Below are positions 8,772-55,289 of a stretch of 64,000 nt of DNA, one piece after another. The DNA is from Alphaproteobacteria bacterium. GTDB taxonomy: Bacteria > Pseudomonadota > Alphaproteobacteria > M2410. The position numbers and the translations under genes were made by a program. The notes under the pieces were generated by a model that saw only the letters and a list, made by a program, of their open reading frames with translations, was not told where the DNA came from and ran no database searches. Numbering within the stretch: position 1 is the stretch's first letter; each line of letters starts with the position of its first letter. The stretch is from NCBI GenBank assembly GCA_030614785.1, contig JAUWTJ010000004.1, positions 1,609-65,608 of the forward strand. The letters run 5' to 3'.

Positions 8772-10652
8772 TCAATCCGCTTTGGCCGCCTGTACCCGCT
8801 CCTGCACACCGGTCTTTGCAACCAGATCACGAAACCATATCACTGGATTTTCGGACGCCCCGGGTCCAGGCGAGAATTTTACCTCGCCCAGTTCACTGAC
8901 AAACTCCGGATCGCGCATCCATTGAAGAATGTGCCGTGAGGCTCTGGTGGCGCAGGTGCCCTCTGTCAGAACCTTCGCGTCGAGCAACCTGAGCATGGTC
9001 AGGGCCTTTTCAGCCCCGGAGACCGCGCGCCGGGAAATCGACTGGAAGAGCTGACCCTCCTCCTCGACCCTCGACGACAGGACATCAAATGCCTCAACAA
9101 CCTGGCCCTTTTCCGTCTCGGGAAATCCCGAGGCCAGAACCCGGCCCTGCAAGGCGGCCAGGCATCCAAGCCGGCGCAGCAGAGGTTCATGCGCATCGAG
9201 AAACAGCCGTTCCATCTTTGGACCGGTCAAGATCGGCAGGATGTAGTTGACCAGACGCGCCTTGCTGGCGCTGCCAATAATATTGTCTTCAAGGTCGAGC
9301 AACAATTCGATCCGGGCATCGGGCGTCGAGGCAGCGGCCATATACTCCTCGGCCATTTCCAGTGCCGTCAATCGAACCGACCGGGTTTCAAAGGCTGACA
9401 CAATATCCTCAAGCGAGACCATCGGCCCCTGGCACAGAACCATGCGTTTGGCCAGGCTTCGCGTCAGCGCAACCTCACGGTTGATATCGTCGGGACTGAG
9501 GCGCTTGATCCCGTTCAGCTCCTGCAGGACCCGGGTGACGATCGCCTTGCGGGAATGCGGCAGGCCATCGTTGACAAAGAACCCGGCAAGTTGTTTCAGT
9601 CCCGGGCGTCCGGCAATGTCAGGGTTGTCTGCATTGCCTAAAAACAGATCCACCATCAGGGTCAGCGAGGCCCCAAGGTCGGGCTGCGCACCGAGGAAAT
9701 CCGCCAGTGACGCGCGCCCGCTCACCATTTCGGCGGCAAAGTCATCAATAGAGGCAAGGCACACCGCCTGTCCACGCTCTTCGCCCGGCAAGTGATCCAT
9801 CAGGGACAACAGAAGGGGCAGTTTTTTCGAACAGCCGGAGACTTTACTCAGTGTACGGGCAATGGCGCAGTTAATCACATAGTTTGGCTCCGGTACCGCG
9901 CGCGCCGCCTCCCATGCCCGCCCGAGATTGCCCTCGGCGTCTTTCGGACATCTTCCGGCCCGATCTTCGGTGAAGACCCGTGCCATACCGCGCGATACCA
10001 GATCATTGAGCTGTTTGATGATCTCCGTCACCGGCAGGTTTTCGGCTGACGCCTGAACGACCGCCCATTTCTGCACCGCATGTTGCATGACCGTTCCTCT
10101 GGACTGCAGGCTTTGCAGTACATCGGCGCGGTGCAAAAGCTCCATCGTCGTCAGGCCTTCGCCCTTCAAGGTATCTTCCAGGACACGCGAGATTGCGGCC
10201 CGGGCCTTTGACCCATAAAGATCACTCGGCGTGGCACAGGGGAGACGTACATCCTCCGGCCGCAGCTGCCGCTTATGCTTGACGACCTTCGGGCCACCCT
10301 CTTCAAAAACTGTAATGGGCAGGTATTCGCCGGTCGCAAGGTTACAGGTTTCCTTGATCACTTTTGCGCCCGAGAATGTTTTCTGCAGCAAGGCGTATTT
10401 GGCGGCGTTCAGCGCCGCGCCGCGCTCGGCAAAGGCCTCTTGTAAAACCCAGCCGGTGTCGCCGGCACGGATCACAAGAACCTCGTAGTGAATCTGCTTT
10501 GCCAAAGGAAGCCCCAGTTGTTCCCGTCGTTGAACCCCTTCAACACCCTGATGATAGGAAACTCTGCTTAAGGTCGAGTAAATTGTAACCTTCTTACAGC
10601 ACCAACTTTTACGCGTTTTACTGGAAGAGCCTGGCTGGCTCAACACGCTCAA
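8772..10652 (-). CDS. large hypothetical protein (626 aa as drawn; true start uncertain, listed start is TTG)
   Basis: long ORF with good coding character, no recognisable domain; immediately downstream of tRNA-Thr on the same strand. Confidence 0.45.
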   Translation of the reverse strand: MSVLSQPGSSSKTRKSWCCKKVTIYSTLSRVSYHQGVEGVQRREQLGLPLAKQIHYEVLVIRAGDTGWVLQEAFAERGAALNAAKYALLQKTFSGAKVIKETCNLATGEYLPITVFEEGGPKVVKHKRQLRPEDVRLPCATPSDLYGSKARAAISRVLEDTLKGEGLTTMELLHRADVLQSLQSRGTVMQHAVQKWAVVQASAENLPVTEIIKQLNDLVSRGMARVFTEDRAGRCPKDAEGNLGRAWEAARAVPEPNYVINCAIARTLSKVSGCSKKLPLLLSLMDHLPGEERGQAVCLASIDDFAAEMVSGRASLADFLGAQPDLGASLTLMVDLFLGNADNPDIAGRPGLKQLAGFFVNDGLPHSRKAIVTRVLQELNGIKRLSPDDINREVALTRSLAKRMVLCQGPMVSLEDIVSAFETRSVRLTALEMAEEYMAAASTPDARIELLLDLEDNIIGSASKARLVNYILPILTGPKMERLFLDAHEPLLRRLGCLAALQGRVLASGFPETEKGQVVEAFDVLSSRVEEEGQLFQSISRRAVSGAEKALTMLRLLDAKVLTEGTCATRASRHILQWMRDPEFVSELGEVKFSPGPGASENPVIWFRDLVAKTGVQERVQAAKAD

Positions 10653-10771: not shown

Positions 10772-10849
10772 TGGTGCCGCTAAGGTGATTCGAACACCTG
10801 ACCCCCGCATTACGAATGCGATGCTCTACCAACTGAGCTATAGCGGCAC
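10772..10849 (-). tRNA. tRNA-Thr (anticodon CGT)
   Basis: reverse complement GTGCCGCTATAGCTCAGTTGGTAGAGCATCGCATTCGTAATGCGGGGGTCAGGTGTTCGAATCACCTTAGCGGCACCA folds as a cloverleaf; anticodon loop TTCGTAA; encoded CCA. Confidence 0.85.
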
Positions 10850-11922: not shown

Positions 11923-13638
11923 CTACCAGCCGTCCTTGTTATCGGGGTCATCGGGGTCATCGAAAGGGTTCGCACCCGGGCCCGGGTCATCGACCGGCGG
12001 CGCTGTCAACGGGGCGTCACTTTCTGCGCTCCCGCCCGGCGCGGCGATGACACTTTCTCTTGCCAGCGGATTTGACGCGCCGACTTTTGACGCCCTGCCG
12101 TGCTGCGGGACGGACGCAGTATCAGGCACAGCATCTATGATAACAGGCGCGCTGGCTGGCTTGTCGGCGGCTGTTTTTTCATCAGTATCTTTTTCATCTG
12201 TATTCGGCGGCGTGGCAACGGGGGTTATATCCTTTGCACCAACCCCGCCCTCTTCCTCTGTGATGTCCTCTTTGCCATCCTCTTTGCTATCCTCGGGAGC
12301 CTCTGCTTCCACCGGTTCAAGAACCAGCCCGGCGATGAGGTCGGCGGGGGCCTGCCAGCTCAACGTATCAAAGGCGCCGCAATTGTTGCAGGTCGAGGTC
12401 CACGCCGCGCTCTCGCGGCCACAGGTCTCGCACATCCAGTGGGCGTCGCGCGGTGCGGTGACGGTTTTTGACAGCCAGTCGCGCGCGAGATCCTCGTTGC
12501 CATCTGCCGCCTCGATGTCGGCCATGAGCTTGCAGACGCGGGCGGTGGCGTACCCTTCGGCGAGGCCCGCAAGATGCTTGCGCGCCGGTTTGTGGCGGCC
12601 AAGGGCAAGATCTTGCTGCGCGCGCAGCAGGCGGCTTTCAATGTGGTCGCGATTGAAGTCAGCCAGACCCTTGAGCCATTTGGCGTCGGCCCTGATGTCT
12701 TCGGCTTCGGGATCGCGCCCCTTTCTCGCTTCTGCGTAGGCGGGAACAAGATCGGGATGCGGCGATGCGGTCCAGGCTTTCTCGATGGTCTGCGCGGCCT
12801 TCCACAGGTTGTCGGCGCGGATGTGATGCCTGGCGGCAAGCACGGCAGCCGGAACCAGACCGGGGGAGAGGTCTGCGGCTTTCAAGCCCCAGTCTTCGGC
12901 TTCTTTGGCCTCACCCTTACCTGCGGCATCCAAAGCCTGCTCGGTATAAAGAACAGCGCTGCGACGCCTGGCGACACCGGCTTCAATGTGTTTTGAGGCA
13001 ACGGATTTCTCAAGCGTTTGTGCAGCCGCGGACCATTCACCGATCGCGGACTGGAGCTCGAAGAGGGCATTGAAAACCCAGGGCGTTTCCGGCTGCAGCT
13101 CGAAAGCGCGCTCGGCCAGACCGAGCGCTTCGAGACGGTTACCGCTGCGGGCGCTTTGCAGAAAAAGCCCGCGCAAACCGAGAAACTCCGTCTCCGGATT
13201 ATCGAGCATTTTCTTGTAGGCTTTGGCGGCGCGCTTTTCATCGCCTTCCAGTTGGGCCGCCTGCGCCGACAGCAGCAGCGTCAGCGGCGGATCATTGAGC
13301 AGCGCATTGGCGCGGGCGGCGAGTTTTCTCACCTCGCTCGGGTTACCGGCCGCAACCGCGACAAGACCCTGACGCAGCGCCTCCTGGCCCCGGACCTGGC
13401 GGCGGGTGCTCGCCCAGGTGAGGAGCGCAACCGGGCCGCCAATGGTGCGCAGCAACAGGCGGTAGCCATAAAGCAGCAGCGCCATGAAGAGGATCAGCAG
13501 CACGGCGACAAGGGTGAAGCTGGTCTCGATCCGGTAGCCAAACCAGGTGACAGCAAAGTCACCGGGATTGTCGGCAAGCCACGCCCCGCTTGCGGCGAGG
13601 GCAGCAATAACAAAGAGGAACCAGAACGCTTTCCACAT
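11923..13638 (-). CDS. hemY: HemY N-terminal-domain protein (TPR, membrane) with an acidic low-complexity C-terminal tail
   Basis: two N-terminal TM helices then TPR region, family resemblance to proteobacterial HemY; position downstream of hemC-hemD-mic60-like. Confidence 0.7.
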   Translation of the reverse strand: MWKAFWFLFVIAALAASGAWLADNPGDFAVTWFGYRIETSFTLVAVLLILFMALLLYGYRLLLRTIGGPVALLTWASTRRQVRGQEALRQGLVAVAAGNPSEVRKLAARANALLNDPPLTLLLSAQAAQLEGDEKRAAKAYKKMLDNPETEFLGLRGLFLQSARSGNRLEALGLAERAFELQPETPWVFNALFELQSAIGEWSAAAQTLEKSVASKHIEAGVARRRSAVLYTEQALDAAGKGEAKEAEDWGLKAADLSPGLVPAAVLAARHHIRADNLWKAAQTIEKAWTASPHPDLVPAYAEARKGRDPEAEDIRADAKWLKGLADFNRDHIESRLLRAQQDLALGRHKPARKHLAGLAEGYATARVCKLMADIEAADGNEDLARDWLSKTVTAPRDAHWMCETCGRESAAWTSTCNNCGAFDTLSWQAPADLIAGLVLEPVEAEAPEDSKEDGKEDITEEEGGVGAKDITPVATPPNTDEKDTDEKTAADKPASAPVIIDAVPDTASVPQHGRASKVGASNPLARESVIAAPGGSAESDAPLTAPPVDDPGPGANPFDDPDDPDNKDGW

Positions 13639-20949: not shown

Positions 20950-21732
20950 TCAAGCCGCAGCTTCTTTCGCCGCATCGCGGGGATGCGCGGTTTCTTGCGG
21001 GAACCGACGTTTGGTCTCGTTGTAAAAATCCGGCGGCTCGATGTTGAGCCGGTCACGGACCTCTTCGAGGGGCAGCGGCATCAGGCTTTCCCATTCCTGG
21101 GCGGCGAACCAGTCGGCACGAGCGGCGTTCTCGCGGGCCTCCCTGATACACTCTTTCGACGGCACAGGAGACTTGTCCTTGCGGCTGGAGCGCTGCGACA
21201 TATAGATGATAAACCGGATGCCGAGATTTGGTGTCTGGGCGGAGGAAAACGCCAGCAGGGAAATCTCGCCAAGGCCGTCGCGGCCATAGCCGGACACGAC
21301 ATGGAAGAGATCGTGAGTGTCGCGCAGACGCTCGCCAAACCAGCGCTCGTCTTCAGTGAATTCACGATCGCGGTCGGCTTCCATGGAGGCGGCCATCAGA
21401 CCGTCAGCAGAAAGATCTTCTGTAACGACAAAATCAAGATAGGCGCGCCCCAGTGAGCCTTCGGGATAGTCTTTGAGCTTGTCGCGATCCTGGAGGATTT
21501 CGAGAATGTCCGGCTTGGCGGCCAGCAGCCCTGCGCCGCCCTGGCGCGCCCGGAGACGCTCGGTGTTATTCATCATGGCGCCGCCCTCAAGGGCTTCAAC
21601 GATCTTGAAAACCTCACCTGTGGCCTCGCCATCCTTCAAGAGGTTCTGCATCGCACGCCAGGCTTTAAGTGGTTGCCTGCGATGGCGTCCTGGTCCGCGC
21701 CGGCCGGTCTGTTTCTCGCCCTGTTGCATCAC
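20950..21732 (-). CDS. Coq4-family protein (ubiquinone biosynthesis Coq4 homologue), paralogue 1
   Basis: HDLFHVVSGYG...E zinc-binding HDxxH-(x)n-E signature of the Coq4 family; paralogous to the next gene. Confidence 0.6.
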   Translation of the reverse strand: MMQQGEKQTGRRGPGRHRRQPLKAWRAMQNLLKDGEATGEVFKIVEALEGGAMMNNTERLRARQGGAGLLAAKPDILEILQDRDKLKDYPEGSLGRAYLDFVVTEDLSADGLMAASMEADRDREFTEDERWFGERLRDTHDLFHVVSGYGRDGLGEISLLAFSSAQTPNLGIRFIIYMSQRSSRKDKSPVPSKECIREARENAARADWFAAQEWESLMPLPLEEVRDRLNIEPPDFYNETKRRFPQETAHPRDAAKEAAA

Positions 21733-21817: not shown

Positions 21818-22600
21818 TTAAGCCGCGACCGGCTCGGCCAGATCGGGGGCAGCATTGCCCTCCTCGCCCTGCGCCAGAGCCGCGCGGTAAAGCGCGGGAA
21901 TGCGGACATTAAGGCGGGCACGGATGTCCTCGAGCGGTTCGGCCAGAAGCTCTTCCCAGGGCTCGGCAGCAAGCCAGCCAGCGGTACTGCCGTGCGCCCT
22001 TGCTTCCTTGACACAGGCGCGTGCGAGGCGGCCGTTGCCGTTTTTGGCGTCGCGGCGCTGCGCCATATAGACGATGAAAGCGATGCCGCGATTGTGAGAC
22101 TGGGCATTGGAAAAGGCTATGACACTGAGCTCGCCCAGGGGATCGCGGCCATAGCCGGTGATCACGTGATAGAGATCATGAATATCGCGCAGGCGCTCGC
22201 CGAGCCAGACTTCTTCGGGATCATAGAACTCCGATGTCGGATCAATCTCCGGGCGCGGTGCCTCGGCACTGGCCTCGAGCAGGCCCTGAGCGGTGAGGTT
22301 TTCAGATTCCATAAAATGCAGATAGGCGCGCCCGAGGCTGCCGTCCGGCATCGCGCGCAGGGTTTCGCGATCTTCCAGCAACGGGAGGATCGACGGTCTG
22401 TCACGCAGCAGTTCGCGGCCGCTTTCACGCGCGTGCATCTCGTACATCGCCCGGGTCAGGCTGTCGCCCTTCAGGGCGTTGATGATCTTGAAGACTTCGC
22501 CGGTCGCTTCGGGGTCTTTCAACAGTTTCTGTACGGATCGCCAGGCAACCAGCGGGCGCACGCGTGTATCCGGCTTGGCGGTTTTTGCTTCGGGGGACAT
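21818..22600 (-). CDS. Coq4-family protein, paralogue 2
   Basis: HDLYHVITGYG...E signature; collinear similarity with 20950-21732 over its whole length; start taken at ATG 22600. Confidence 0.6.
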   Translation of the reverse strand: MSPEAKTAKPDTRVRPLVAWRSVQKLLKDPEATGEVFKIINALKGDSLTRAMYEMHARESGRELLRDRPSILPLLEDRETLRAMPDGSLGRAYLHFMESENLTAQGLLEASAEAPRPEIDPTSEFYDPEEVWLGERLRDIHDLYHVITGYGRDPLGELSVIAFSNAQSHNRGIAFIVYMAQRRDAKNGNGRLARACVKEARAHGSTAGWLAAEPWEELLAEPLEDIRARLNVRIPALYRAALAQGEEGNAAPDLAEPVAA

Positions 22601-22771
22601 GGGGCTATATCCTTTATGGCTTTGAGGGGGCAGCAAGGAACGCAACTGAAACGGGGGTTGGCGCGATTCTACCAGACCGTGCGACAAAACCAATAGTGAG
22701 CCCGTCACATTTACCAATCATTACGAAGGAAATCTTTGTACGTTGCAAACTGGAAGCATTCCAGCAATAGT

Positions 22772-44863: not shown

Positions 44864-45490
44864 ATGCTTGACCGCTACGCCCGCAAATTGATTGACCCGC
44901 CGCTCAACGTTCTGGGCCCGATGGTGGCGCGCAGCGGCGTCTCGGCCAATGCGCTGACGTTGTGGGGTCTGGGGATCGGTGTCGGCGTGGCAGTCGCGGT
45001 GGCCTTGAGCGCCTTTTACCTTGCGTTGTTCCTGCTGCTGGCCAACCGCTTTCTTGACGGGCTCGACGGCGCCGTGGCGCGCGCAACAACATCTGCAACG
45101 AGGGCGGGCCCGACCGAGTTCGGCGGCTATCTCGATATTGTCTCGGACTTCTTTTTCTGGGCGTTGTTGCCGCTCGGCTTTGCGGTGGCTGATCCGGCCA
45201 ATGCGCTGCCCGCAGCGGTGCTACTGGCAAGCTTCGTTGCGACCGGCACGACGTTTCTGGCCTATGCCATCCTCGCCGAAAAAGGAGGCTACAAGACCAC
45301 GGTGCGCGGCGAGAAATCGTTTTTTCATCTTGGCGGACTGACCGAAGGGACGGAAACCATTGCATTCTTTGTCATCGTCATGGCGTGGCCGTCGCTCTTT
45401 CCCGCTCTCGCCCTTATCTTTGCCGCATTGGCGGCGATCACGGCGATCACGCGCGTGTGGGAGGCGTGGCGTGTCTACGGGCGATCTTAA
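44864..45490 (+). CDS. CDP-alcohol phosphatidyltransferase-family protein
   Basis: DGLDGAVAR...G...D CDP-OH-P motif (DG..AR...G...G...D) in a multi-TM protein. Confidence 0.7.
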   Translation: MLDRYARKLIDPPLNVLGPMVARSGVSANALTLWGLGIGVGVAVAVALSAFYLALFLLLANRFLDGLDGAVARATTSATRAGPTEFGGYLDIVSDFFFWALLPLGFAVADPANALPAAVLLASFVATGTTFLAYAILAEKGGYKTTVRGEKSFFHLGGLTEGTETIAFFVIVMAWPSLFPALALIFAALAAITAITRVWEAWRVYGRS

Positions 45491-45572
45491 ATTCTTGTTC
45501 CTTTTCGCGCCGGAAATCCTGCCGCCCGACCGTTAAACAACCGGTTCTGTTCTTCCTGCGGAGTTTTCCCTG

Positions 45573-46292
45573 ATGTCGCTGCGCTTCGGTTCTTCTTTCC
45601 CTCTGCCGATTCTCTCCATCGCCGCAGCTCTCCTGGTCACGGCCTGTGCCGGCGATCGCGGCGAGCGCAACAGGCATCACGCGGGTCAGGCAGGAGGAGC
45701 AGACCTCTATTCCCACGCCATGAAGCTCAAACGCTCCGGAAATTGCGAGGCCGCAGAGCGGCCTCTCGCGCGCCTGGCCGCCCAGGGCGGCGGCTTTGAA
45801 ATCGCCCAGTATCACCTTGGCGACTGCATGGCCCATCGCAGCGCGGACATGGCCGGCCCGGAGCGCGAACTCCTTATGACGCAGGGCCTTCACTGGCTTG
45901 AGCTGGCGGCGGGTTCCGGCGAACCGAAAGCCCAGGCACGGCTGGTCGAGTTTTATATCGGGGATCACATGGGCGCTCCTGCTCCGGTGCAATCCGCCAC
46001 CTGGTATCTGATTTTTCAGGACAATCCGAAACGCACGTTCATCGAAATTGTCGAGGTTGATCCCGGACCCAAAGATGCTCTGTTTCGTCTGGCTACAGAG
46101 GAAGATTGGAAAAAGGCTCAGGCAAACGCCAACGCCTGGTCGAAGGTCATCCAGGAGGTCAAGGTTCCGGATGCAGGATTTCCCCCGGATCAAACGAAGA
46201 AGAAACCCCGAGGCAAAGGTGATGGTAAAGGCCGCGGCAAAGGCGGCGGGCATGGCGGCGGCGGCATGGGTTCGGGCCTCAATCATCGCTGA
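45573..46292 (+). CDS. lipoprotein with Sel1-like repeats and Gly/Lys-rich C-terminal tail
   Basis: lipobox LVTAC; Sel1-like helical repeats; C-terminal KGDGKGRGKGGGHGGGG low-complexity tail. Confidence 0.5.
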   Translation: MSLRFGSSFPLPILSIAAALLVTACAGDRGERNRHHAGQAGGADLYSHAMKLKRSGNCEAAERPLARLAAQGGGFEIAQYHLGDCMAHRSADMAGPERELLMTQGLHWLELAAGSGEPKAQARLVEFYIGDHMGAPAPVQSATWYLIFQDNPKRTFIEIVEVDPGPKDALFRLATEEDWKKAQANANAWSKVIQEVKVPDAGFPPDQTKKKPRGKGDGKGRGKGGGHGGGGMGSGLNHR

Positions 46293-46332
46293 ATTCCCGG
46301 CATGCCAGTTATAACAAGCCGCACGCGGTTCA

Positions 46333-46460
46333 CAAAAAAGGGGCCCTCGATTGAGAGCCCCTTTGATGTTCTATCTGGTGAAAAAGCCGGGCTGGCCTTT
46401 CCTTCCCTCGCCGGTTTCCTGATCAACAACATTCATGTTCAGGCGGCGTATGTCGCCTTC
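46333..46460 (-). repeat. copy A: displaced, diverged copy of the pnp 3' end (last ~20 codons) plus degenerate terminator hairpin
   Basis: GGGGCCCTCgattGAGAGCCCC hairpin (one stem mismatch vs the genuine 53121-53142); then a sequence translating on the minus strand to MNVVDQETGEG... vs genuine pnp C-terminus [19 protein letters not shown]. Confidence 0.7.
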
Positions 46461-46470
46461 GCGCGCTGGA

Positions 46471-47223
46471 TCAGTGGGGCCGGGTCTGTGTGGAATGTCG
46501 TCGCCGACGTGCTACCCCTAACCCGGCAAAACCAATAACAAGGATGCCGAGCGGGCCCGGCTCGGGGACGCTGTCACTACCGGAACCACTGCCGCCGCCC
46601 GATTCAAGGCTGGTGTAGACATAGGAGACGTCGATGGCCCCTCTAATATTCGAGCGACCGGATATCAGGCCGGGGAGGCCCGATCCCGACACAAGGGATG
46701 TCAAAGTTCCAAAATGACTAATATTGAAGGTGCCAGGGCTACCGATCGCCGGAAAGACCTGGGTTACTGACCCCCCAGGCACGACCAGAGGCGAAAGGAC
46801 GGCTGTGCACGAAACCGTACCCGTACAAGAACCTGTTCGAGATGGAAGGCTGTATGCAATGAGAGGAAAGCCACCAAAGGAGAAGTAAAGAGTGGAAGGG
46901 CTCAGAACGAGTTGCTGGTTAAAGCCGGGAAAGGGGAAGAGACCCAATGCAAAGGATTTTGCCTTAAGTGAAAGGTCAAAGGTAATCTCAATCGTGACAC
47001 TGTCCAGCGTGCCCAATCCTTTGTTAAATTTTTCGAATGTCGGAGGCAGAGAGGTCAGAAGGAAGGAGTTGGTCAAGGGGGCGACCCCTGGACCGGCATA
47101 GGCGATTGTCCCCGTAAATTCGGAGGTTTGAGTTATAACACCCGCCTTTGCCGGGCTCGCCAGCAAGGCAGCAATCCCCATGAGAATAGCGACAAAAAGC
47201 CCGGATCGAGTTTTCACTGACAT
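46471..47223 (-). CDS. PEP-CTERM sorting-domain secreted protein
   Basis: signal peptide; C-terminal VPEPGPLGILVIGFAGLGVARRRR (PEP motif, TM helix, Arg cluster). Confidence 0.6.
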   Translation of the reverse strand: MSVKTRSGLFVAILMGIAALLASPAKAGVITQTSEFTGTIAYAGPGVAPLTNSFLLTSLPPTFEKFNKGLGTLDSVTIEITFDLSLKAKSFALGLFPFPGFNQQLVLSPSTLYFSFGGFPLIAYSLPSRTGSCTGTVSCTAVLSPLVVPGGSVTQVFPAIGSPGTFNISHFGTLTSLVSGSGLPGLISGRSNIRGAIDVSYVYTSLESGGGSGSGSDSVPEPGPLGILVIGFAGLGVARRRRHSTQTRPH

Positions 47224-47320
47224 TTAATTTTCCCCTGAAACGACACCCACTCGCTGGTCAAGGTTAACGACACATTAACGGTTCCACAACAGGTTGTTTC
47301 GCCCATGGTTAACACCAGGA

Positions 47321-47400
47321 TGAAAAAGCCTAGTCGGCCTTTTTTTCCTTTGCGATTTCCTCGCCGGTTTCCTGGTCGACGACTCTCATGCACAGGCAGG
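47321..47400 (-). repeat. copy B: second displaced copy of the pnp 3' end (no hairpin)
   Basis: gaaaaagcctagtcggc...ttgcgatttcctcgccggtttcctggtcgacgactctcat, nearly identical to genuine 53161-53227; translates to MRVVDQETGEEIAKEKKAD*. Confidence 0.7.
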
Positions 47401-47566
47401 CAAGATGCTTTGACCATCTGCGTTCATGTCGCCCTGAAATGTCTCTTGTTGCATCGAGATCGGGCATGAAAGAGGTTTGCATCTGTTGACAGCTCCTAAC
47501 TCACTGGAGGCACACACGCCCCTACACATGTGTCCGGCAATGCCTTCAGACCCTCCTTAATCAGTC

Positions 47567-48475
47567 TCACTGGTAAGTGCGCTCGGCTCTGAAATCCTTG
47601 GGCGGAAGGCCCATGTGATCTTTGAACGCCCTGGAAAAATGACTGCGGCTTGCATAGCCCACGGTGCTGGCGATTTCATCAATTGACATTGTTTCGACTT
47701 CCAACATTTGCGCAGCATGTTGCATTCGGATGTGATTGACAAAACTCATTGGCGACCTGCCAAAAGATTTCATAAAGACTGAGGAAAACGCAGACCGGCT
47801 CATTGCGGCAATTTCGGCCATCGAGTCGACGCTATAGTCCCCTCCAGGCCTGTCGAGAACCACATCGACAACTCTGCCAAGTCGGTCATCCTGGAGCGCC
47901 GAGAGCCAGGGTACGGCTGCTTCGCCTTCACTTGGTAATCGCCTGAAGAAATGAACAAGACATTGTGTCATGAGAGCCGCTGTCATCGCATCATGACCTG
48001 CTATTGCTTGAGACTGCTCCTCCATTATGCCTTGAAAGGAGGTTAGAGCCTGCGGAACATTGGACAGATCAACCGCAAGAACCTCTGTGAGGTGACTAAA
48101 CAGATCCATGGATGAGCCATAGCGCACATCTATGATTCCACATCCGATTACAAGTTCCGCATTGTCCGTGGACCCGGCAACGATTTCGCAGACCTTGTCA
48201 CCGGCGGGCGGTGAATCAATCCTCAGTTCATCCGTCGCCATTCCTTTGGTCTCAATAACATGTTTGGCCCCAACAGGAACGACAGACAGGTGCATCGGGT
48301 GAATCGGATGTGCATCTCCCTTTGGACCATAGAGCACGCCTTCTCCCTCCAACACAAAATGCAACAACAGGCCTGAAGGACCAGGTAGATGAAGCCGCCA
48401 GCCTTGACTGAGCGAACATATCGCAAATGGCATGACGTGAACTGACAGGTTTGACAACAATTTGTCGAGCAACAT
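47567..48475 (-). CDS. AraC-family transcriptional regulator (cupin-like N-terminal domain)
   Basis: C-terminal double HTH (IAAMSRSAFSSVFMKSFG...IASTVGYASRSHFSRAFK). Confidence 0.8.
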   Translation of the reverse strand: MLLDKLLSNLSVHVMPFAICSLSQGWRLHLPGPSGLLLHFVLEGEGVLYGPKGDAHPIHPMHLSVVPVGAKHVIETKGMATDELRIDSPPAGDKVCEIVAGSTDNAELVIGCGIIDVRYGSSMDLFSHLTEVLAVDLSNVPQALTSFQGIMEEQSQAIAGHDAMTAALMTQCLVHFFRRLPSEGEAAVPWLSALQDDRLGRVVDVVLDRPGGDYSVDSMAEIAAMSRSAFSSVFMKSFGRSPMSFVNHIRMQHAAQMLEVETMSIDEIASTVGYASRSHFSRAFKDHMGLPPKDFRAERTYQ

Positions 48476-48664
48476 GAAAAATCCTCCCCTGATTTTGAAC
48501 TCGTAGAGAGCCTATCGACCGCAATTGGACAGAGCAACCGGATAGGACGATCCAGCACACATCCAAACCCAATTGGCACGGGCCGTGGCTCTAGGCTGCA
48601 TGCAGTTGGCCGATTGGCGGTCACGCTAGAACTTGAGCAATCCAACTCACAAAGGATACTGACT

Positions 48665-49441
48665 ATGAAAACCTCAATTTTCCTCAATACCAAGCCCCTG
48701 GTGGCTGGTCTGGCACTTGTCGCAGCCCTTACCTCTACTCAACCCTCCACGGCTGACGGCCTCCCCGATCCAGGAGTCCAGATTGAACCCGGTCGCACAG
48801 CTCTTCTGGTGACCGATCCACAGAATGACTTTCTCAGCCCGGACGGAGTGACCTGGGGTGTTGTCGGAGAAAGCGTAACAGAGAACGACACCGTCAAGCA
48901 CATCGATCAACTGTTTTCAGCCGCCCAATCCGCAGGCATGCCCATTTTCGTATCACCACACTACTATTATAGCCATGACCATCAATGGCAATTTGAAGGC
49001 GCTCTTGAGGTCCTGATGCACAACATCGGAATGTTCGACCGCCAGGGGCCGCTGAGCACCAAGGGCTTCAAAGGATCCGGCGCTGACTGGCTGAAGCAAT
49101 ACAAGCCCTATATTGACGATGAGAAGACCGTTGTAACCAGCCCACACAAGGTCTTTGGTCCAGAAACCAACGATCTTGTCTTGCAGCTGCGCAAGGCTGG
49201 TATTTCAAGGGTAATTCTTGCCGGTATGTCTGCCAATCTGTGTACGGAAGCACATTTGCGCGAACTGATCGAACAAGGCTTTGAGGTTCTGGTTGTCGCC
49301 GACGCCACCGCGGCGGCGAAATTGCCCGGGCTCGACGGGTATGAAGCTGCCCTGACAAATTTCCGGATGATTGCAAATCATGTTGGCAAGACCGACAAAG
49401 TCATTGCCGACATCAAGACGGCCTACGGCTCATCCAATTGA
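48665..49441 (+). CDS. secreted isochorismatase-family cysteine hydrolase
   Basis: signal peptide MKTSIFLNTKPLVAGLALVAALTS; LLVTDPQNDF and AGMSANLCTE nucleophile motifs of isochorismatase-like hydrolases. Confidence 0.7.
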   Translation: MKTSIFLNTKPLVAGLALVAALTSTQPSTADGLPDPGVQIEPGRTALLVTDPQNDFLSPDGVTWGVVGESVTENDTVKHIDQLFSAAQSAGMPIFVSPHYYYSHDHQWQFEGALEVLMHNIGMFDRQGPLSTKGFKGSGADWLKQYKPYIDDEKTVVTSPHKVFGPETNDLVLQLRKAGISRVILAGMSANLCTEAHLRELIEQGFEVLVVADATAAAKLPGLDGYEAALTNFRMIANHVGKTDKVIADIKTAYGSSN

Positions 49442-49508
49442 TCATCCAGGTCAAAGGCTGACACCCAAATTCAATACTGAACAGACATACACATTCAAAC
49501 ACAAAACA

Positions 49509-50387
49509 ATGGAGACCAAAATGACCAACAAGGTATTACTTGACCCCAAGGATCTCGCATCCCGGCTCAATGACGGCAACGTTATTCTGCTTGATACCCG
49601 TGATCCCGAAAGCTTTGCGGCCGGCCATATTCCCGGAGCCATCAATGCCCACGAAATTTTCACTTATCTGGCAACATCAACCCCGGAAGGCCAAAGGGAA
49701 CTACAGGAAAAGTTCGCCACTATTTTCGGTGAGGCCGGACTTTCCGGAAATGAAACTGCCGTGGTCTATGAGCAATCCATGAACACTGGCTTTGGCCAGT
49801 CCTGTCGCGGCTTTTACTTGCTCAAATATCTCGGTTACCCGAAGGTGTGTGTTCTGCATGGCGGATACCAGGCCTGGACTGCAGCCGACCTGCCGACGTC
49901 CACAGAAGCGACAACGCCGGAACCGAAAGCCTTTCCTGTCGACCAGGACGCGGCAAGACTTATTGTCGATGCGCAAACCATGCTGGAGGCAATCAATAAT
50001 CCTGAAATCATCAAACTGGATGTTCGCGATGTGGATGAATGGATCGGCGCGAGTTCCTCACCATACGGTGTCGACTTCTGCCCGCGAAAGGGTCGCATAC
50101 CCGATGCCCGCTGGCTCGAATGGTACCGTATGATGAAGCCAGGCCCGGATGGTCCTGTCTTCAAGAGCAAGGACGAAATTCTGGCAGAATGCCAAACCGT
50201 CGGCATTACACCAGACACGCCAGTCATTCTTTATTGCTTTAAGGGTGCACGAACGTCCAGCACCTTTGTTGCCCTCAAGGAAGCAGGCGTAAAGGATGTT
50301 CGAACCTACTTTGGCTCGTGGAACGAATGGTCCCGCGACGCATCCCTGCCGATCGAAGAGGGCATGCCAGCCAGTATGGCACAGTAG
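49509..50387 (+). CDS. tandem-rhodanese sulfurtransferase (thiosulfate/3-mercaptopyruvate type)
   Basis: two rhodanese domains, second with active-site CFKGARTSS; ATG 49509. Confidence 0.8.
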   Translation: METKMTNKVLLDPKDLASRLNDGNVILLDTRDPESFAAGHIPGAINAHEIFTYLATSTPEGQRELQEKFATIFGEAGLSGNETAVVYEQSMNTGFGQSCRGFYLLKYLGYPKVCVLHGGYQAWTAADLPTSTEATTPEPKAFPVDQDAARLIVDAQTMLEAINNPEIIKLDVRDVDEWIGASSSPYGVDFCPRKGRIPDARWLEWYRMMKPGPDGPVFKSKDEILAECQTVGITPDTPVILYCFKGARTSSTFVALKEAGVKDVRTYFGSWNEWSRDASLPIEEGMPASMAQ

Positions 50388-50411
50388 GCAACACAGCCTT
50401 ACAGACAACAG

Positions 50412-50442
50412 TGCCACGTTGATGAAATTCATCAGCGTGGCA
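50412..50442 (+). terminator. 31-bp near-perfect palindrome (TGCCACGTTGATGAA-A-TTCATCAGCGTGGCA) 25 nt after the rhodanese stop; putative terminator or protein-binding site
   Basis: 15-bp inverted repeat with a single mismatch; no U-tract follows. Confidence 0.4.
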
Positions 50443-50956
50443 TTCTCCCTGGACAACAAGGAACATAGTTATTTGGCGACCCTTCGTGGATACCTGTAGA
50501 ACCATGTGACAGGCACCGGAGCCAGATCTCAAGCGCTTGCTTGAGGGCATTCGAGACATGCGCCTGATTGCCTGACACAGAGTGTTGCGTATGAGGGTTT
50601 TCGTGCAAGCGCACACGGTGCATTTGGCGCTTCACAGAGGCCGATTTATTGGAAGTTGGGACACGAAACCTGCCCAAATGGCAACGCCTGACCGCACGAC
50701 CGCTTATGGCTCAATAGCGGCCCTCCATTTCAAGGCATCGTAATGTCTGCTTTTGACCCACAGCGGACATTCCTATGACACTTTTCGCTTGCTTTCGGAT
50801 CCCTGCTACCATAGTTATTTGGTTGGTTGACCAACTTAATCTGTAAAAGAGAGATATGTCCGTGATAATGCTGAGTGAGGCCAACGGACTGCAATCAAAA
50901 AAGATACGCTGTTGAGTCCACAATATGTTTCTTGAGTTTAGCTGCAAAGGTCAAAC

Positions 50957-51538
50957 ATGGCGCCAAGTCAGGGAAGACATTCTGAACTCGTTGACGTCGC
51001 ACTGATACTTTTTCGGCGGCGAGGCTACAGTCGCGTTTCGCTTAGTGACATTGCAGAGGCTGCAGACATGCACCAGGGTAATGTCTACTACTATTTCAAA
51101 ACCAAAAAGGAATTGGCGAGTGCAGTTTTGGAGCATTGTGACGAGACGCTTGGTGAAATGTTCAGTTCACTCGACGTAGAAGAGCCATGCCAGCGGTTAG
51201 TCCTTTTTCTGGATTACATTGCAGATCAAACGGAAGTCTATTCGCAATGGGGTTGCCCTGTAGCAAGCCTAAGTGAGGATATGATGCTCGAATGTAAGGG
51301 CGATACCCTAGTTAGCTTTCCCAAGGTTTACGAGACCTATTTGGGTTGGTTTAAGCGGAACTTGAAAGAGCTTGGGTTGACTAATGACCGCGCCGAGAAG
51401 GAAAGTCAGCTTTTACTTTCTGGTCTGCAGGGAGCCATTCATGTCGCGCATATATTGGACGACGCATCCATTCTTAAGCGCTTCGCCGCCTTACAAAAGA
51501 AGCAAATCAAGCGTATCAGCGCTGACAGGACGGGATAG
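50957..51538 (+). CDS. TetR-family transcriptional regulator
   Basis: N-terminal HTH VSLSDIAEAADMHQGNVYYYFKTKKEL. Confidence 0.8.
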   Translation: MAPSQGRHSELVDVALILFRRRGYSRVSLSDIAEAADMHQGNVYYYFKTKKELASAVLEHCDETLGEMFSSLDVEEPCQRLVLFLDYIADQTEVYSQWGCPVASLSEDMMLECKGDTLVSFPKVYETYLGWFKRNLKELGLTNDRAEKESQLLLSGLQGAIHVAHILDDASILKRFAALQKKQIKRISADRTG

Positions 51539-51916
51539 ATGATGGAGTTAGATCACGTGAATATATACGTTCGCGATGTTGTCAGGAGCAGAGATTTCTA
51601 TGCGAAGTTGTTACCTCCATCAGGGCTCCCACAAAATCGGGATTTTGGCGAAGTAGCTGTGGCATTCGGGAGTAAGAACTATTCAACACTTGCGCTGGTT
51701 CGGCAGGAAGAACCGGTCCAGCCAATACATTTGGCTTTTCGTGTTGATTCGCGTGGTGAGGTGGACAAGCTCTACACGCAGGCACTCGATGCTGGTGGGC
51801 TGGACAATGGCAAGCCTGGCTTAAGGCTAGATTATCATGAATATTACTATGCGGCATTCATACGCGATCTGGATGGCCATAATTTGGAATTCGTGTGCCA
51901 CAACAATCCACGTTGA
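51539..51916 (+). CDS. VOC (glyoxalase/bleomycin-resistance) family protein
   Basis: MMELDHVNIYVRDVVRSRDFY start; start codon abuts the TetR stop (tagATG). Confidence 0.7.
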   Translation: MMELDHVNIYVRDVVRSRDFYAKLLPPSGLPQNRDFGEVAVAFGSKNYSTLALVRQEEPVQPIHLAFRVDSRGEVDKLYTQALDAGGLDNGKPGLRLDYHEYYYAAFIRDLDGHNLEFVCHNNPR

Positions 51917-52319
51917 CCCTGAAACATATGTCTGTTCATGGCTATACCCAGCCGCTTTACAGGGACCTGACGGTGTCTGAAGTTGGGGTGGAAGAGGACC
52001 TTTGAGCTGGAGTGTCGGCTCTACCTCCGACAACGGGCTCATTTCAGCGAAGACCATTCCGGCGGTTCTTGACCCTACTCGGACCTTCTGGCTCGACATC
52101 TCTTACGCGCAGTGAAGTTGGCTCTCGAGGGTCCTTGGCATTTGCAGGAACTACCCCAACCCAGAAAACCCATAAGTGTCGAAATACTTTACACCTTTAG
52201 TGCAGACAAGATCGATCAATGGGCTAACGCCTTCGATTCGTTAACCATATTTATCTGGCCTGCTTCTTGCTTTGTTACCCATAATGAATTGTCTTGAAAC
52301 TTAGCGTAGGTGAATCTCA

Positions 52320-52937
52320 ATGAAGAAATCGATTTTACCACTAATTACCGCCGGACTGCTGTGGGCAGGCCCTGCACATGCCGGAGTTCTATATGACGAA
52401 GGAGCGAGTGGCGACTTGAGCGCGATTATTCAAAGTCTGGGAGACCTGGCTCTGGGCGGCAATGACATACTGGGGACCTGGAACGCAACTCCGGGTTCCG
52501 ATACTGATCGCTTCACATTCACTCTTCCAGTGGGTCTGCAAATTGATAGCATAACGGTAAGTTACGGCAGTCTGCAAAACGGTGAAAACCTCAATGTTGG
52601 TATGGGCTCCAATGGGAACCTCTTTGATGATGCCTTTGTTGGTTCCGTCGATTTCTTCTCACCGGCCGGTTATGGTTCTGGCTTTGCCGCCGCATTTGTA
52701 GATACCTTTGGGCCGACGACAGGACCTCTGGACACAACACTGGCCGGTTCAGTTTGGGATATCCAATTGACCGGAAGCACCATATTCTCAACAAAATCAT
52801 GGACCGTCACGGTCAACACCAGCGTGTTTTCCGATGGTGGAGGCGGCGATCCTGTTCCAGCACCAGCTGCTCTTGGCCTCCTAGGTTTCGGGTTGGCTGG
52901 TCTTGGACTTGTGGGCCGCAGACGCGTTAAAAAATAG
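52320..52937 (+). CDS. PEP-CTERM-type sorting-domain secreted protein (VPAP variant)
   Basis: signal peptide MKKSILPLITAGLLWAGPAHA; C-terminal DPVPAPAALGLLGFGLAGLGLVGRRRVKK. Confidence 0.55.
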   Translation: MKKSILPLITAGLLWAGPAHAGVLYDEGASGDLSAIIQSLGDLALGGNDILGTWNATPGSDTDRFTFTLPVGLQIDSITVSYGSLQNGENLNVGMGSNGNLFDDAFVGSVDFFSPAGYGSGFAAAFVDTFGPTTGPLDTTLAGSVWDIQLTGSTIFSTKSWTVTVNTSVFSDGGGGDPVPAPAALGLLGFGLAGLGLVGRRRVKK

Positions 52938-52962
52938 TCAGCACACATTGAGATTGACAAAG

Positions 52963-52991
52963 GGCGGTTCTATTGAACCGCCCTCTTTTGC
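52963..52991 (+). terminator. rho-independent terminator after the PEP-CTERM gene
   Basis: GGGCGGTTC-tatt-GAACCGCCC followed by TCTTTTG. Confidence 0.6.
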
Positions 52992-53113
52992 ATCGAAGCG
53001 ACCTGCCTGCTTCGATGGCCGCCTTTGGCTAATCTGAGACTCAGCCAAGGTTCGCTTGATACGGCCGTTTCTCACTCAAAAGCGGACTTGGCTACGTCCA
53101 TTCGGACTTTCAT

Positions 53114-53142
53114 AAAAAAAGGGGCTCTCGATTGAGAGCCCC
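53114..53142 (-). terminator. pnp rho-independent terminator
   Basis: GGGGCTCTC-gatt-GAGAGCCCC, perfect 9-bp stem; on the pnp strand it is followed by a T7 run. Confidence 0.75.
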
Positions 53143-53168
53143 TTTGATATTCCGTTTGCTGAAAAAGC

Positions 53169-55289
53169 CTAGTCGGCTTTCTCTTCGCTCTTGATTTCCT
53201 TGCCGGTTTCCTGATCGACGACTTTCATCGACAGGCGCACCTTGCCGCGGTCATCGAAGCCCATCAGCTTGACCCAGACTTTCTGGCCTTCGGAGAGCAC
53301 ATCGGAGACCTTCTCGACCCGGCCCGGGGCGAGTTGGGAGATGTGCACGAGGCCATCCTTGGGACCGAAGAAGTTCACGAACGCGCCGAAGTCAACGACC
53401 TTGACGACCTTGCCTTCGTAGATCACGCCCACTTCAGGCTCGGCAGTCAGAGAACGGATCCATTTCAGGGCCGCCTCGATAGACGGGCCATCGGACGAGG
53501 CCACTTTCACAGTACCGTCGTCTTCAACGTTGACCTTGGCACCTGTGACTTCGACGATCTCGCGGATCACCTTGCCACCAGCCCCGATAACGTCGCGGAT
53601 CTTGTCGACCGGGATCTTGATGGTTTCAATGCGCGGGGCATATTCACCAAGTTCCGGACGCGCTTCGGTGAGGTCCTTGTTCATTTCGTCAAGGATATGC
53701 ATGCGGCCGCCCTTGGCCTGTGTCAACGCGACTTGCATGATCTCTTCGGTGATGCCGGTGATCTTGATGTCCATCTGCAGGGAGGTGATCCCCTCAGAGG
53801 TCCCGGCCACTTTAAAGTCCATGTCGCCGAGATGATCCTCGTCGCCAAGAATATCGGAGAGCACAGCAAAGCGCTCACCTTCCTTGATAAGGCCCATGGC
53901 AATCCCTGCCACCGGACGCTTCAGCGGAACGCCCGCATCCATCATGGCAAGAGAGGCACCGCAAACTGTCGCCATGGAAGACGAACCGTTTGACTCTGTG
54001 ATCTCGGACACATTGCGAATGGTGTAGGGGAACTCATCCTTGGCCGGAAGAACTGCCCGAAGCGCGCGCCAGGCAAGCTTGCCGTGACCAACTTCGCGGC
54101 GACCAGTAAAGCCTGTGCGACCGGTTTCACCAACCGAGAACGGCGGGAAGTTATAGTGCAGCATGAAGCTCTCACGGTAGGTTCCGGCGAGCGCGTCAAT
54201 GAGCTGCTCGTCGTCGCCGGTCCCCAGGGTCGTGACAACAAAGGCCTGTGTTTCGCCGCGCGTGAAGATCGACGATCCGTGGGTGCGGGGCAGAACGCCG
54301 GTTTCAGCAACAATCGGGCGGACTGTCGACAAATCACGGCCATCAATCCGGCTTGATGTATCAAGAATTGACGTCCGCACGATGTCGGACTCCAGACCCT
54401 TGAGAAGACCGCCGATATCATTGTCGGACAGTTCGGTTTCGCCTTCAGCAAGAGCGGCCTTTGCAGCTTTCTTGGCTGCAGAGATCTTTTCCTGACGGAC
54501 CTGCTTGACCTGCTCGGCATAGGCGGCGCGAAGACCGTCTTCGGCAAGCTCGCGGATTTGCGCTTCATGGGCTGACAGATCCGGTGGCTGGAAGTCCCAT
54601 GGCTCCTTGGCACATTCTTCAGCCATGTCGACAATCATGTCGATAACCGGCTGCATTTCGCGATGACCAAACATCACGGCGCCAAGCATGACATCTTCAG
54701 AAAGCTCGGAGGCTTCTGATTCCACCATGAGAACCGCATCCTTGGTTCCCGCAACAATGAGATCAAGATCGCTGTCCGGCAGATCATCGATCAGCGGGTT
54801 CAACCTGTATTCACCGTCGAAGAAACCGACGCGCGCGCCGCCGATCGGACCCTGGAAGGGGACGCCGGAAATGGTCAGGGCCGCAGAGGCTGCGACCAGG
54901 CCGAGGATATCGGGATCATTTTCAAGGTCGTGGCTCATACAGGTGATGATGACCTGGGTCTCGTTCTTGAAGCCCTTGACGAAGAGCGGACGAATGGGCC
55001 GGTCAATCAGGCGAGAGGTCAGCGTTTCCTTTTCGGTTGGACGCCCTTCGCGCTTGAAAAAGCCGCCAGGAATCTTGCCTGCGGCGAAATACTTTTCTTG
55101 ATAATTGACGGTCAGCGGGAAGAAATCGAGGTTTGGCTTGGGGTGCCTGTCCGAGACGATCGTCGCGAGAACCGTTGTGTCGCCATAGGTCGCAAGAACT
55201 GCGCCATCGGCTTGACGCGCCACATGGCCCGTTTCAAGGGTCAGCTCACGGCCACCCCATTGGATAGTTTTCTTTGTTATTTTGAACAT
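53169..55289 (-). CDS. pnp: polyribonucleotide nucleotidyltransferase (PNPase)
   Basis: 706 aa; [31 protein letters not shown] start; two RNase PH domains, KH and S1 domains. Confidence 0.95.

Follow-up and report, generated by a model that had tools for sequence, protein, structure and literature searches.

Insertion of foreign DNA into the tail of a gene, with displaced copies of that tail left behind, is a familiar bacterial route to new genes. In Escherichia coli K-12, the e14 element begins 165 nt before the stop codon of icd, and the displaced gene end, icdC, lies at the far end of the element and is identical at 153 of 165 positions. This 15-kb element carries phage genes together with intE and xisE, which encode its integrase and excisionase. 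Phage 21, like e14, occupies the 3' end of E. coli icd. In Streptococcus thermophilus, Pavlovic, Bellanger and Guédon are said to have described CIMEs and accretion at the 3' end of fda, the site of ICESt1 and ICESt3. CIMEs are att-flanked segments in the 3' end of a protein-coding gene that have no integration or transfer genes and can form tandem arrays with other elements. A partner ICE with a matching integrase is reportedly known for them, and their mobilisation is said to have been shown experimentally. The pnp segments described below resemble CIMEs in their att-type flanks, their place in the 3' end of a protein-coding gene and their lack of integration and transfer genes. Other systems stack several units at one place. 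In the tandem IGE arrays described in a section of PMC7192596, one att site is reused and unrelated segments accumulate, each bounded by a partial 3' end of the target, and PMC3146451 deals with genomic islands integrated at ssrA in Dehalococcoides. The intA-D elements of Dichelobacter nodosus adjoin pnpA, but integrate into a tRNA-Ser gene (PMC2593044).

Here, we describe a structure of familiar type at a new target, pnp, the gene for polynucleotide phosphorylase (PNPase), within a window that is the whole 64-kb stretch of DNA analysed. As at icd, foreign DNA lies in the 3' end of a housekeeping gene, a diverged replacement end completes the gene, and the old end persists as a pseudogene on the far side. 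However, e14 has its own integrase, whereas no recombinase was found in the pnp island; in addition, less sequence is duplicated (about 45-70 nt of coding sequence plus UTR) and there are three copies instead of two. The tandem arrays (TIGER/Islander; Dehalococcoides ssrA) have RNA genes as targets and normally require an integrase for each unit, whereas the target here is protein-coding and none of the units carries one. In contrast to CIMEs, no partner element was found in the loci searched. The D. nodosus elements lie beside the PNPase gene, whereas the island lies inside pnp itself. The initial annotation of this DNA regarded pnp as an uncommon integration target, and full-text literature searches indeed found no report of PNPase itself in that role. 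With this locus, pnp joins the few protein-coding genes known to receive foreign DNA at their 3' end.

Three pnp tails and the DNA between them

The target gene occupies 53169-55289 on the minus strand as an intact reading frame of 706 aa with two RNase_PH domains and PNPase, KH and S1 domains (Pfam), and its product is a 100% match to a protein (P0241) from an 87-kb NCBI contig. The working tail, copy C (53115-53237, minus strand), consists of the last ~69 nt of the coding sequence, the 3'UTR and the terminator hairpin (53118-53145). Copy B (47321-47398, minus strand) is a displaced tail that translates to MRVVDQETGEEIAKEKKAD before its stop codon, ends 10 nt past that codon and has no terminator; it is 83% identical to copy C over 77 aligned nt. 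Copy A (46334-46445, minus strand) is the most decayed, with 82% identity to copy C over 76 aligned nt. Its coding remnant, translated as MNVVDQETGEG..., has an 11-nt deletion and has lost the stop codon, but its 3'UTR and terminator (46337-46364, one mismatch) are well kept. The repeated unit is thus the last 45-60 nt of pnp, present three times in direct orientation and accompanied by the 3'UTR and terminator in two of the three cases. Sequence comparison bore out the three direct copies of the initial annotation with their positions and translations, and the pairwise tail alignments and the terminator of copy A agreed with its description.

An 11-nt core, CAGGAAACCGG, is the candidate crossover block (53203-53213 in C, 47364-47374 in B and 46411-46421 in A, all on the minus strand). 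It is invariant across the three copies and the pnp tail of every same-species relative. Exact blocks shared by the copies are 11-21 nt long, with the longest match, read by eye, at ~21 nt. When up to three mismatches were allowed, a 26-nt tail pattern matched exactly the three copies in 64 kb and nothing in 100 dinucleotide-preserving shuffles of the window, and no fourth copy was found within the window. The 168 nt upstream of copy B contain no pnp homology (score 15 vs 17.6 ± 2.4 in shuffles). The tail copies are thus fragments with defined limits and not the remains of longer duplications that have decayed.

Outward from pnp, the array reads tail C with its terminator, a 5.7-kb segment, tail B, a 0.9-kb one-gene segment, and tail A with an older terminator. 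The inner segment (47399-53114, 5,716 bp) holds six genes identified with Pfam: an AraC gene on the minus strand (47567-48475) and, on the plus strand, isochorismatase-like (48614-49441), rhodanese (49371-50387), TetR (50957-51538), VOC/glyoxalase (51539-51916) and PEP-CTERM-like (52320-52937) genes. The outer segment (46446-47320, 875 bp) contains a single PEP-CTERM-like gene (46471-47223) on the minus strand, co-directional with pnp, whose Pfam score of 20.3 bits is just below the 20.7 cut-off. The two segments between the copies are compositionally foreign. The GC content is 0.511 in the inner and 0.545 in the outer segment, against 0.596 ± 0.019 outside the island, where equal-sized windows for the inner segment reach a minimum of 0.561; GC3 is 0.47-0.58 in cargo genes vs 0.63-0.74 in core genes. 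The initial annotation had delimited both segments, and both are absent from a conspecific genome (L223).

The variable block extends past the repeats. Beyond the last one, 45491-46333 is taken up by a lipoprotein-like gene (45573-46292, plus strand) and its spacers. This gene has no Pfam or PADLOC match and only 7 homologues among 5.8 billion proteins, and the GC of its region, 0.604, is host-like. The initial annotation had taken it for core DNA, which proved wrong: the gene is strain-specific, missing from L223 and from other relatives. Next to it lies a CDP-alcohol phosphatidyltransferase (CDP-OH transferase) gene (44864-45490, plus strand, convergent with pnp; Pfam), the conserved far anchor of the hotspot, which is 89% identical to its counterpart in L223 vs ~98% in the flanks. 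The lipoprotein-like gene and this lowered identity show that other processes also act on the interval between pnp and the CDP-OH transferase gene.

Empty and occupied sites in relatives

Aligned with the window, L223 is 98.3% identical along 10.9 kb of the pnp flank and 97.6% identical along 6.2 kb of the fab flank, and it carries the empty site for which the initial annotation had proposed to look. Its pnp terminator runs directly into the CDP-alcohol phosphatidyltransferase gene (called at 12147-12767) with nothing between, and the T-run of the terminator overlaps the stop codon of that gene. Since this conspecific site is empty, positions 45481-53111 of the window (7,631 bp) are an insertion relative to L223.

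Within the species, the end of pnp itself is variable. Conspecific PNPases that are 97-99% identical have four different tails directly after VVDQETG, and the window keeps pnp intact with a tail that departs from those of conspecifics right past the core. Copy C agrees with L223 at 34/34 positions to the core end, then at 27/34 in the coding tail and 45/52 in the UTR and terminator; these 14 differences in the 86 nt past the core give P = 0.017 against the third-codon-position rate. Copy A matches the genuine pnp UTR of L223 at 49/52 positions over its UTR and terminator, compared with 45/52 for copy C, a difference that alone is not significant. These hybrid-site statistics (P about 0.02) are modest, and they weakly suggest that the distal copy may be the ancestral end, as originally proposed.

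In two sister-lineage contigs, the site holds cargo of another kind. L082 has a second tail with terminator (134 nt, 90% identical), which an ABM-domain gene separates from pnp, and its two tail copies match perfectly over ~80 nt. In L083, pnp is followed by two unknown genes and then by a 37-nt relic of the pnp tail. The DNA that separates pnp from the far anchor is different again in L084, L087 and L089, and the CDP-alcohol phosphatidyltransferase gene is the distal anchor in L083, L084 and L087. In an alignment read by eye, the four displaced copies start within ~25 nt of one another. Both the window and L082 contain an insert of 0.8-0.9 kb with one gene co-directional with pnp, followed by a tail-terminator copy, and these two inserts are too small to be autonomous. 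About 200 pnp loci from more distant alphaproteobacteria showed no duplication of the gene's tail. The locus is a clean natural example in that a single lineage of uncultured alphaproteobacteria has alleles that are empty, occupied, or occupied by other cargo.

Recombinase search and probable origin

A recombinase HMM was run against every ORF of at least 120 aa, the HMM and PinE searches covering 7,413 ORFs from the window and all loci. Pfam was applied to those ORFs in 1-55 kb that were probable genes and had 150 aa or more, with overlapping alternatives skipped, and to 10 small ORFs in the gaps and edges of the island. These searches detected neither tyrosine nor serine recombinases, either in the window, in keeping with the earlier remark that no integrase is present, or at any occupied site of a relative, and Pfam revealed no transposase domains among the cargo genes. 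The segments are flanked by attL-/attR-type repeats and have neither recombination nor transfer genes, the combination by which CIMEs are defined. No autonomous element sharing the att site was found in the 64-kb window, 9 related contigs, about 200 distant pnp loci (flanks up to 10 kb) or viral contigs, and no attP-like orphan pnp tail was found in viral contigs.

How was this array built? We judge, with some reservation, that it is probably an additive island produced by successive recombination events within the pnp tail, and that a site-specific recombinase is the most likely agent. Foreign DNA would have entered at least two times by recombination within the terminal ~45-70 nt of the pnp coding sequence, and we infer a crossover at or just upstream of CAGGAAACCGG. 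Every incoming piece would have brought its own version of the pnp tail, which left the gene whole and shifted the former tail outward as a non-functional copy, in an order of events that would place the oldest end furthest from the gene. The enzyme may have been a tyrosine-type recombinase recognising a site in the pnp tail, as for e14 in icd. As the locus has no recombinase gene, the segments would be elements that have decayed, or else passengers without an integrase of their own that are mobilised in trans in the manner of CIMEs. The initial annotation spoke of serial site-specific insertion. Insertion at the pnp tail stands, on the empty site, the foreign GC and the reuse of the site, while a dedicated recombinase is a conditional part of that claim, as homologous recombination between repeated tails could build the same array.

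If a recombinase is found, its site of ~11-35 nt in a universal gene might be useful for targeted integration. In other respects, the locus varies a well-understood theme. For annotators, pseudo-ORFs derived from the pnp tail are to be expected here, and the island would escape programs that call islands only where there is an integrase.

Competing explanations

A less likely but serious alternative is that no dedicated integrase took part. The pnp tail would then be portable homology and, after a first duplication, RecA would have moved and stacked the segments, either by a Campbell-type single crossover of a tail-bearing circle or by a crossover that pairs a long arm in pnp with a short one in the incoming tail copy; crossovers would be located in and next to CAGGAAACCGG, the longest stretch of identity. 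Such a route accords with the lack of a recombinase gene at any of the four occupied sites and in the window, and with inserts that are tiny one-gene pieces. The incoming tails match the host tail at 79-90% identity and would therefore come from close relatives, the perfectly identical stretch shared by the L082 copies suffices for RecA, and the divergent CDP-OH transferase gene between well-matched flanks resembles a homologous recombination tract. However, the origin of the first duplication is left unexplained, and the short exact blocks of the window copies are a poor RecA substrate. In addition, displaced copies in separate lineages begin at nearly the same point (within ~25 nt) without grading into longer pnp homology, which a defined attP fits better than crossovers or fragment ends placed at random. 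A reading that we hold to be doubtful makes the locus a clade-specific cassette-capture site, in which one- or few-gene units with a pnp-tail module, with or without a terminator, were inserted serially behind pnp through a recombinase encoded elsewhere or RecA alone. The pnp 3' end would act like an integron attI without a linked integrase, and the single-gene units with a tail-terminator copy in the window and L082 are as this reading predicts.

The occupied state could also be ancestral and L223 a secondary deletion, with tails arising from local tail-terminator duplication, for example to terminate neighbouring genes. Copy A's well-conserved terminator does serve two convergent genes, and deletion between direct repeats is easy. 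We nevertheless consider this highly unlikely given the foreign GC and GC3 between the copies, the completely different cargo in the window, L082 and L083, and the absence of the cargo from more distant relatives too; moreover, the overlap of T-run and stop codon in L223 and the loss of the lipoprotein-like gene would not result from deletion between tail repeats. Still less probable is an assembly chimera that concatenated strain variants downstream of pnp through the shared tail. The window does come from a metagenome-derived contig, and in a 93%-identical relative the contig ends 106 nt past pnp, but copies that are ~80% identical with exact matches of at most ~21 nt should not allow assemblers to join through them, and the same architecture occurs in the independent assembly L082. 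The initial annotation had itself named a dispersed repeat unrelated to pnp as one case against its reading. The copies do include a GC-rich hairpin, yet we give a REP-like or terminator family practically no chance: only three copies occur in 64 kb, all of them downstream of pnp, relatives that lack an island have one per locus, L223, L084 and L087 have a single copy each, the homology lies mostly in the coding part of the pnp tail, a hairpin is missing from copy B, and no Rfam family matches.

Two further classes of element were tried and rejected. The locus is not an integron cassette array, as there is no integrase, the repeat is a pnp coding tail that in copy B lacks a hairpin, and the cargo has multi-gene units with regulators in both orientations. 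A Tn7-like element was set aside because the cargo has no transposase domains and the flanking repeats are direct gene fragments of 77-123 nt. The AraC-isochorismatase-rhodanese module is found elsewhere without pnp tails. In a plasmid search with window positions 46300-53250, matches fell mainly on the sulfurtransferase gene, at 67-68% among the best 15 of 69 records.

Serial copies of the pnp 3' end

Downstream of pnp, this window has the architecture of an additive island: segments inserted one after another into a gene's 3' end, bringing replacement tails. The pnp gene itself (53169-55289, minus strand) is a 706-aa ORF with the full PNPase domain set in Pfam, followed by a terminator with a 12-bp stem (53118-53145). 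According to the initial annotation, the end of this gene recurs twice downstream in direct orientation, and alignment, translations and a pattern search of the window confirm it. Copy B (47321-47398) has the same orientation as pnp, is 83% identical over 77 nt to the genuine end (copy C) and ends 10 nt past the stop codon. Copy A (46334-46445), also in the orientation of pnp, is 82% identical to the genuine end over 76 nt; it has retained the terminator with one mismatch and has lost the stop codon together with 11 nt of the coding remnant. The copies are bounded fragments, as pnp homology does not extend into the 168 nt that precede copy B. Rfam detected no known RNA family in or near the repeats.

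Between copies C and B lies an inner segment of 5,716 bp (47399-53114), in which Pfam identifies PEP-CTERM-like, VOC/glyoxalase, TetR regulator, rhodanese, secreted isochorismatase-like hydrolase and AraC regulator genes. The outer segment between copies B and A (46446-47320, 875 bp) holds one PEP-CTERM-like gene, co-directional with pnp. Both PEP-CTERM matches score just under the Pfam cut-off of 20.7 bits (20.3 for 46471-47223 and 18.6 for 52320-52937), and the window shows no exosortase gene. The inner segment has a GC content of 0.511 and the outer one 0.545, against 0.596 ± 0.019 (minimum 0.561) in equal-sized windows elsewhere, and GC3 is 0.47-0.58 in the cargo genes against 0.63-0.74 in pnp, fabB, fabI and infB. 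Homologues of the cargo place the AraC-isochorismatase-rhodanese module at other loci without pnp tails. When plasmids were searched with the island, the matches listed (15 of 69 records) were to the sulfurtransferase gene, at 67-68%.

The AraC-isochorismatase-rhodanese trio is a portable 2.8-kb module (47572-50370 in the window). It is found again with 79% nucleotide identity on a short contig (L220:407-3195) whose flanks are unrelated and visibly AT-rich, and the AraC-rhodanese pair also occurs in other genomes, on contig L221 and one JGI contig.

An empty site within the same species

Among GTDB species representatives, the best PNPase relative reaches 75% identity; a metagenomic protein search yielded relatives at 99, 92, 92, 85 and 85%. 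The PNPase and the lipoprotein encoded in the window are themselves recorded from an NCBI contig of 87,331 bp. The Logan contig L223 (ERR12074374) bears P0243, a PNPase in the same 90% cluster as that of the window, and provides the empty site in a close relative by which the initial annotation proposed to check the insertion. Its two flanks match the window closely, at 98.3% identity across 10,889 nt beside pnp and 97.6% across 6,158 nt towards fabI-fabB-fabA-fur, and between these flanks the stop codon of a convergent CDP-alcohol phosphatidyltransferase gene directly meets the pnp terminator. Given these matching flanks and the abutting genes, window positions 45481-53111 (7,631 bp) are an insertion polymorphism within one species.

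The far side of this interval is more complex. Beyond copy A lie a lipoprotein-like gene (45573-46292) and, next to it, the CDP-alcohol phosphatidyltransferase gene (44864-45490). The lipoprotein-like gene had been taken as core DNA, which does not hold, for it is missing from L223 and the other relatives. It has a host-like GC content of 0.60 and a position outside the last repeat; its product has a C-terminus rich in glycine and lysine and no known domain, and a collection of 5.8 billion proteins holds just seven homologues, the nearest non-identical one being 76% identical. The CDP-alcohol phosphatidyltransferase gene is only 89% identical between the window and L223, compared with about 98% in the flanks, and L223 carries a DUF4172/Fic gene (L223:12830-13981), with no flanking repeat of note, between it and fabI that is absent from the window. 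These features indicate that processes other than tail insertion also reshape the interval.

Comparison with L223 also bears on the position of the crossover. All copies share an identical 11-nt core, CAGGAAACCGG, which holds the codons for Q-E-T-G. Copy C matches L223 at 34/34 positions over the core and the 23 nt before it, at 27/34 in the coding tail after the core and at 45/52 in the 3'UTR and terminator, and its mismatches after the core exceed the third-codon-position rate of the gene (8.8%; P = 0.017). Copy A agrees with L223 at 28/34 of the first set of positions (17/23 of those preceding the core), at 17/23 in the coding tail, beside a gap of 11 nt, and at 49/52 in the 3'UTR and terminator. 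Five PNPases that are 97-99% identical overall (P0241 of the window, P0242, P0243, P0244 and P0001) diverge immediately behind VVDQETG, with four different tails among them, that of P0242 being KEIEAA. Such a pattern would be expected of a working tail with an external source and a distal copy that preserves the older 3'UTR. The numbers are small, however, the C-terminal tail of PNPase is under little constraint, and the terminator of copy A has probably been kept by selection, because two convergent genes end there. By analogy with the prophage e14 (below), the crossover could equally sit at the upstream edge of the repeats. The core also seems to lie within an imperfect inverted repeat (TCGTCGAT-CAGGAA-ACCGGCGA), but this weakens in the related contig L082 and was not relied on.

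Reuse of the site in close relatives

In L082 (92% PNPase identity), pnp is followed by a single ABM-domain gene and then by a second tail with UTR and terminator (134 nt, 90% identity, including about 80 nt of perfect identity). Directly after this tail lies a type XI retron-like RT-protease gene (L082:13142-14587, minus strand; PADLOC RT-Protease_XI, E = 9e-173; Pfam RVT_1 and Trypsin_2), and the contig ends 450 nt later; the next unit of this array is probably an anti-phage defence gene. In L083 (SRR3577079; 92%), the stretch from pnp to the CDP-alcohol phosphatidyltransferase anchor holds two genes with no recognised domain, then a 37-nt relic of the tail and one further gene. Its 588-aa cargo protein has no match in Pfam or PADLOC, its 110-aa neighbour resembles Flp_N in Pfam only weakly (E = 0.028, below the cut-off), which was taken for noise, and the gene at the place corresponding to the lipoprotein-like gene shows no similarity to it. 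The four displaced copies start within about 25 nt of each other, as read from the alignment.

In three more distant relatives (L084, L087 and L089; 85-79%), the interval from pnp to this far anchor is filled differently and carries no repeats. The closely related contig L081 (ERR6430848; 93% nucleotide identity) ends just 106 nt beyond the stop codon of pnp (L081:12122-12227), a break that would fit an assembly-graph branch at this hotspot. Tail duplication is absent within 10 kb at 80 GTDB pnp loci (PNPase at most 75% identical), and a metagenome DNA-pattern scan detected no second tail at 120 pnp loci of distant alphaproteobacteria in the sequence covered. Taken with its reuse in close relatives, tail duplication is confined to a narrow clade and recurrent within it.

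Mode of integration and precedent

No integrase, resolvase or transposase was detected by Pfam among the likely-gene ORFs of at least 150 aa at 1-55 kb of the window (overlapping alternatives skipped) and 10 small ORFs in the gaps and edges of the island; positions 55-64 kb were assigned by synteny to a rpsO-truB-rbfA-infB-nusA block. Likewise, an HMM of tyrosine recombinases built from five diverse members and a PinE search for serine recombinases, covering the window and all 224 loci (7,413 ORFs), found no recombinase in the window or any related occupied site. The sole recombinase downstream of a pnp gene, in L019, resembles XerC and probably has a housekeeping role. Viral contigs contained no orphan pnp tail; nine matches there to a shorter pattern lie inside unrelated genes and are due to chance.

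We consider it moderately likely that integration was carried out by a site-specific recombinase that has been lost or acts in trans. Such an enzyme would insert segments serially into the pnp 3' end, each bringing a replacement tail, and its later loss, or its supply in trans, would leave a state like that of a cis-mobilizable element (CIME). Growth of the array by RecA, with the pnp tail as portable homology, is a possible but less likely alternative: it accounts for the missing integrase but leaves both the first duplication and the shared boundaries of the copies unexplained. It is unlikely that the repeats are a REP family; a 26-nt pattern taken from the tail, with three mismatches allowed, occurs at exactly three sites in 64 kb, namely copies C, B and A, and at none in 100 shuffles. 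An assembly chimera is also unlikely, since copies about 80% alike, with a longest exact match of about 21 nt, could not have led an assembler to mis-join the array. We likewise regard it as unlikely that L223 lost the segment by a secondary deletion and that the tail copies arose by local duplication.

Tandem arrays are well known, as are att-flanked remnants that lack an integrase. Insertion by a recombinase at pnp would resemble that of the prophage e14 in Escherichia coli K-12, whose start lies 165 nt upstream of the icd stop codon and whose far end bears the displaced icdC fragment, 153/165 identical: in both, insertion is in the 3' end of a gene, a replacement tail is brought in and the old end is displaced to the far side. 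Unlike e14, the units at the pnp site all lack a recombinase, and two of them consist of one gene each, at 0.8-0.9 kb. Full-text searches of the literature turned up no account in which polynucleotide phosphorylase is the target of integration. The int elements of Dichelobacter described as 'next to pnpA' target the neighbouring tRNA-Ser gene (PMC2593044), and a second 'PNP' lead concerned purine nucleoside phosphorylase.

Elsewhere in the window, a 626-aa ORF (8772-10652, minus strand) with no Pfam or PADLOC match adjoins tRNA-Thr (10772-10847), the only tRNA gene of the window. Two tandem Coq4-family genes lie at 20950-21732 and 21818-22717, both on the minus strand (Pfam E = 9e-19 and 8e-24).
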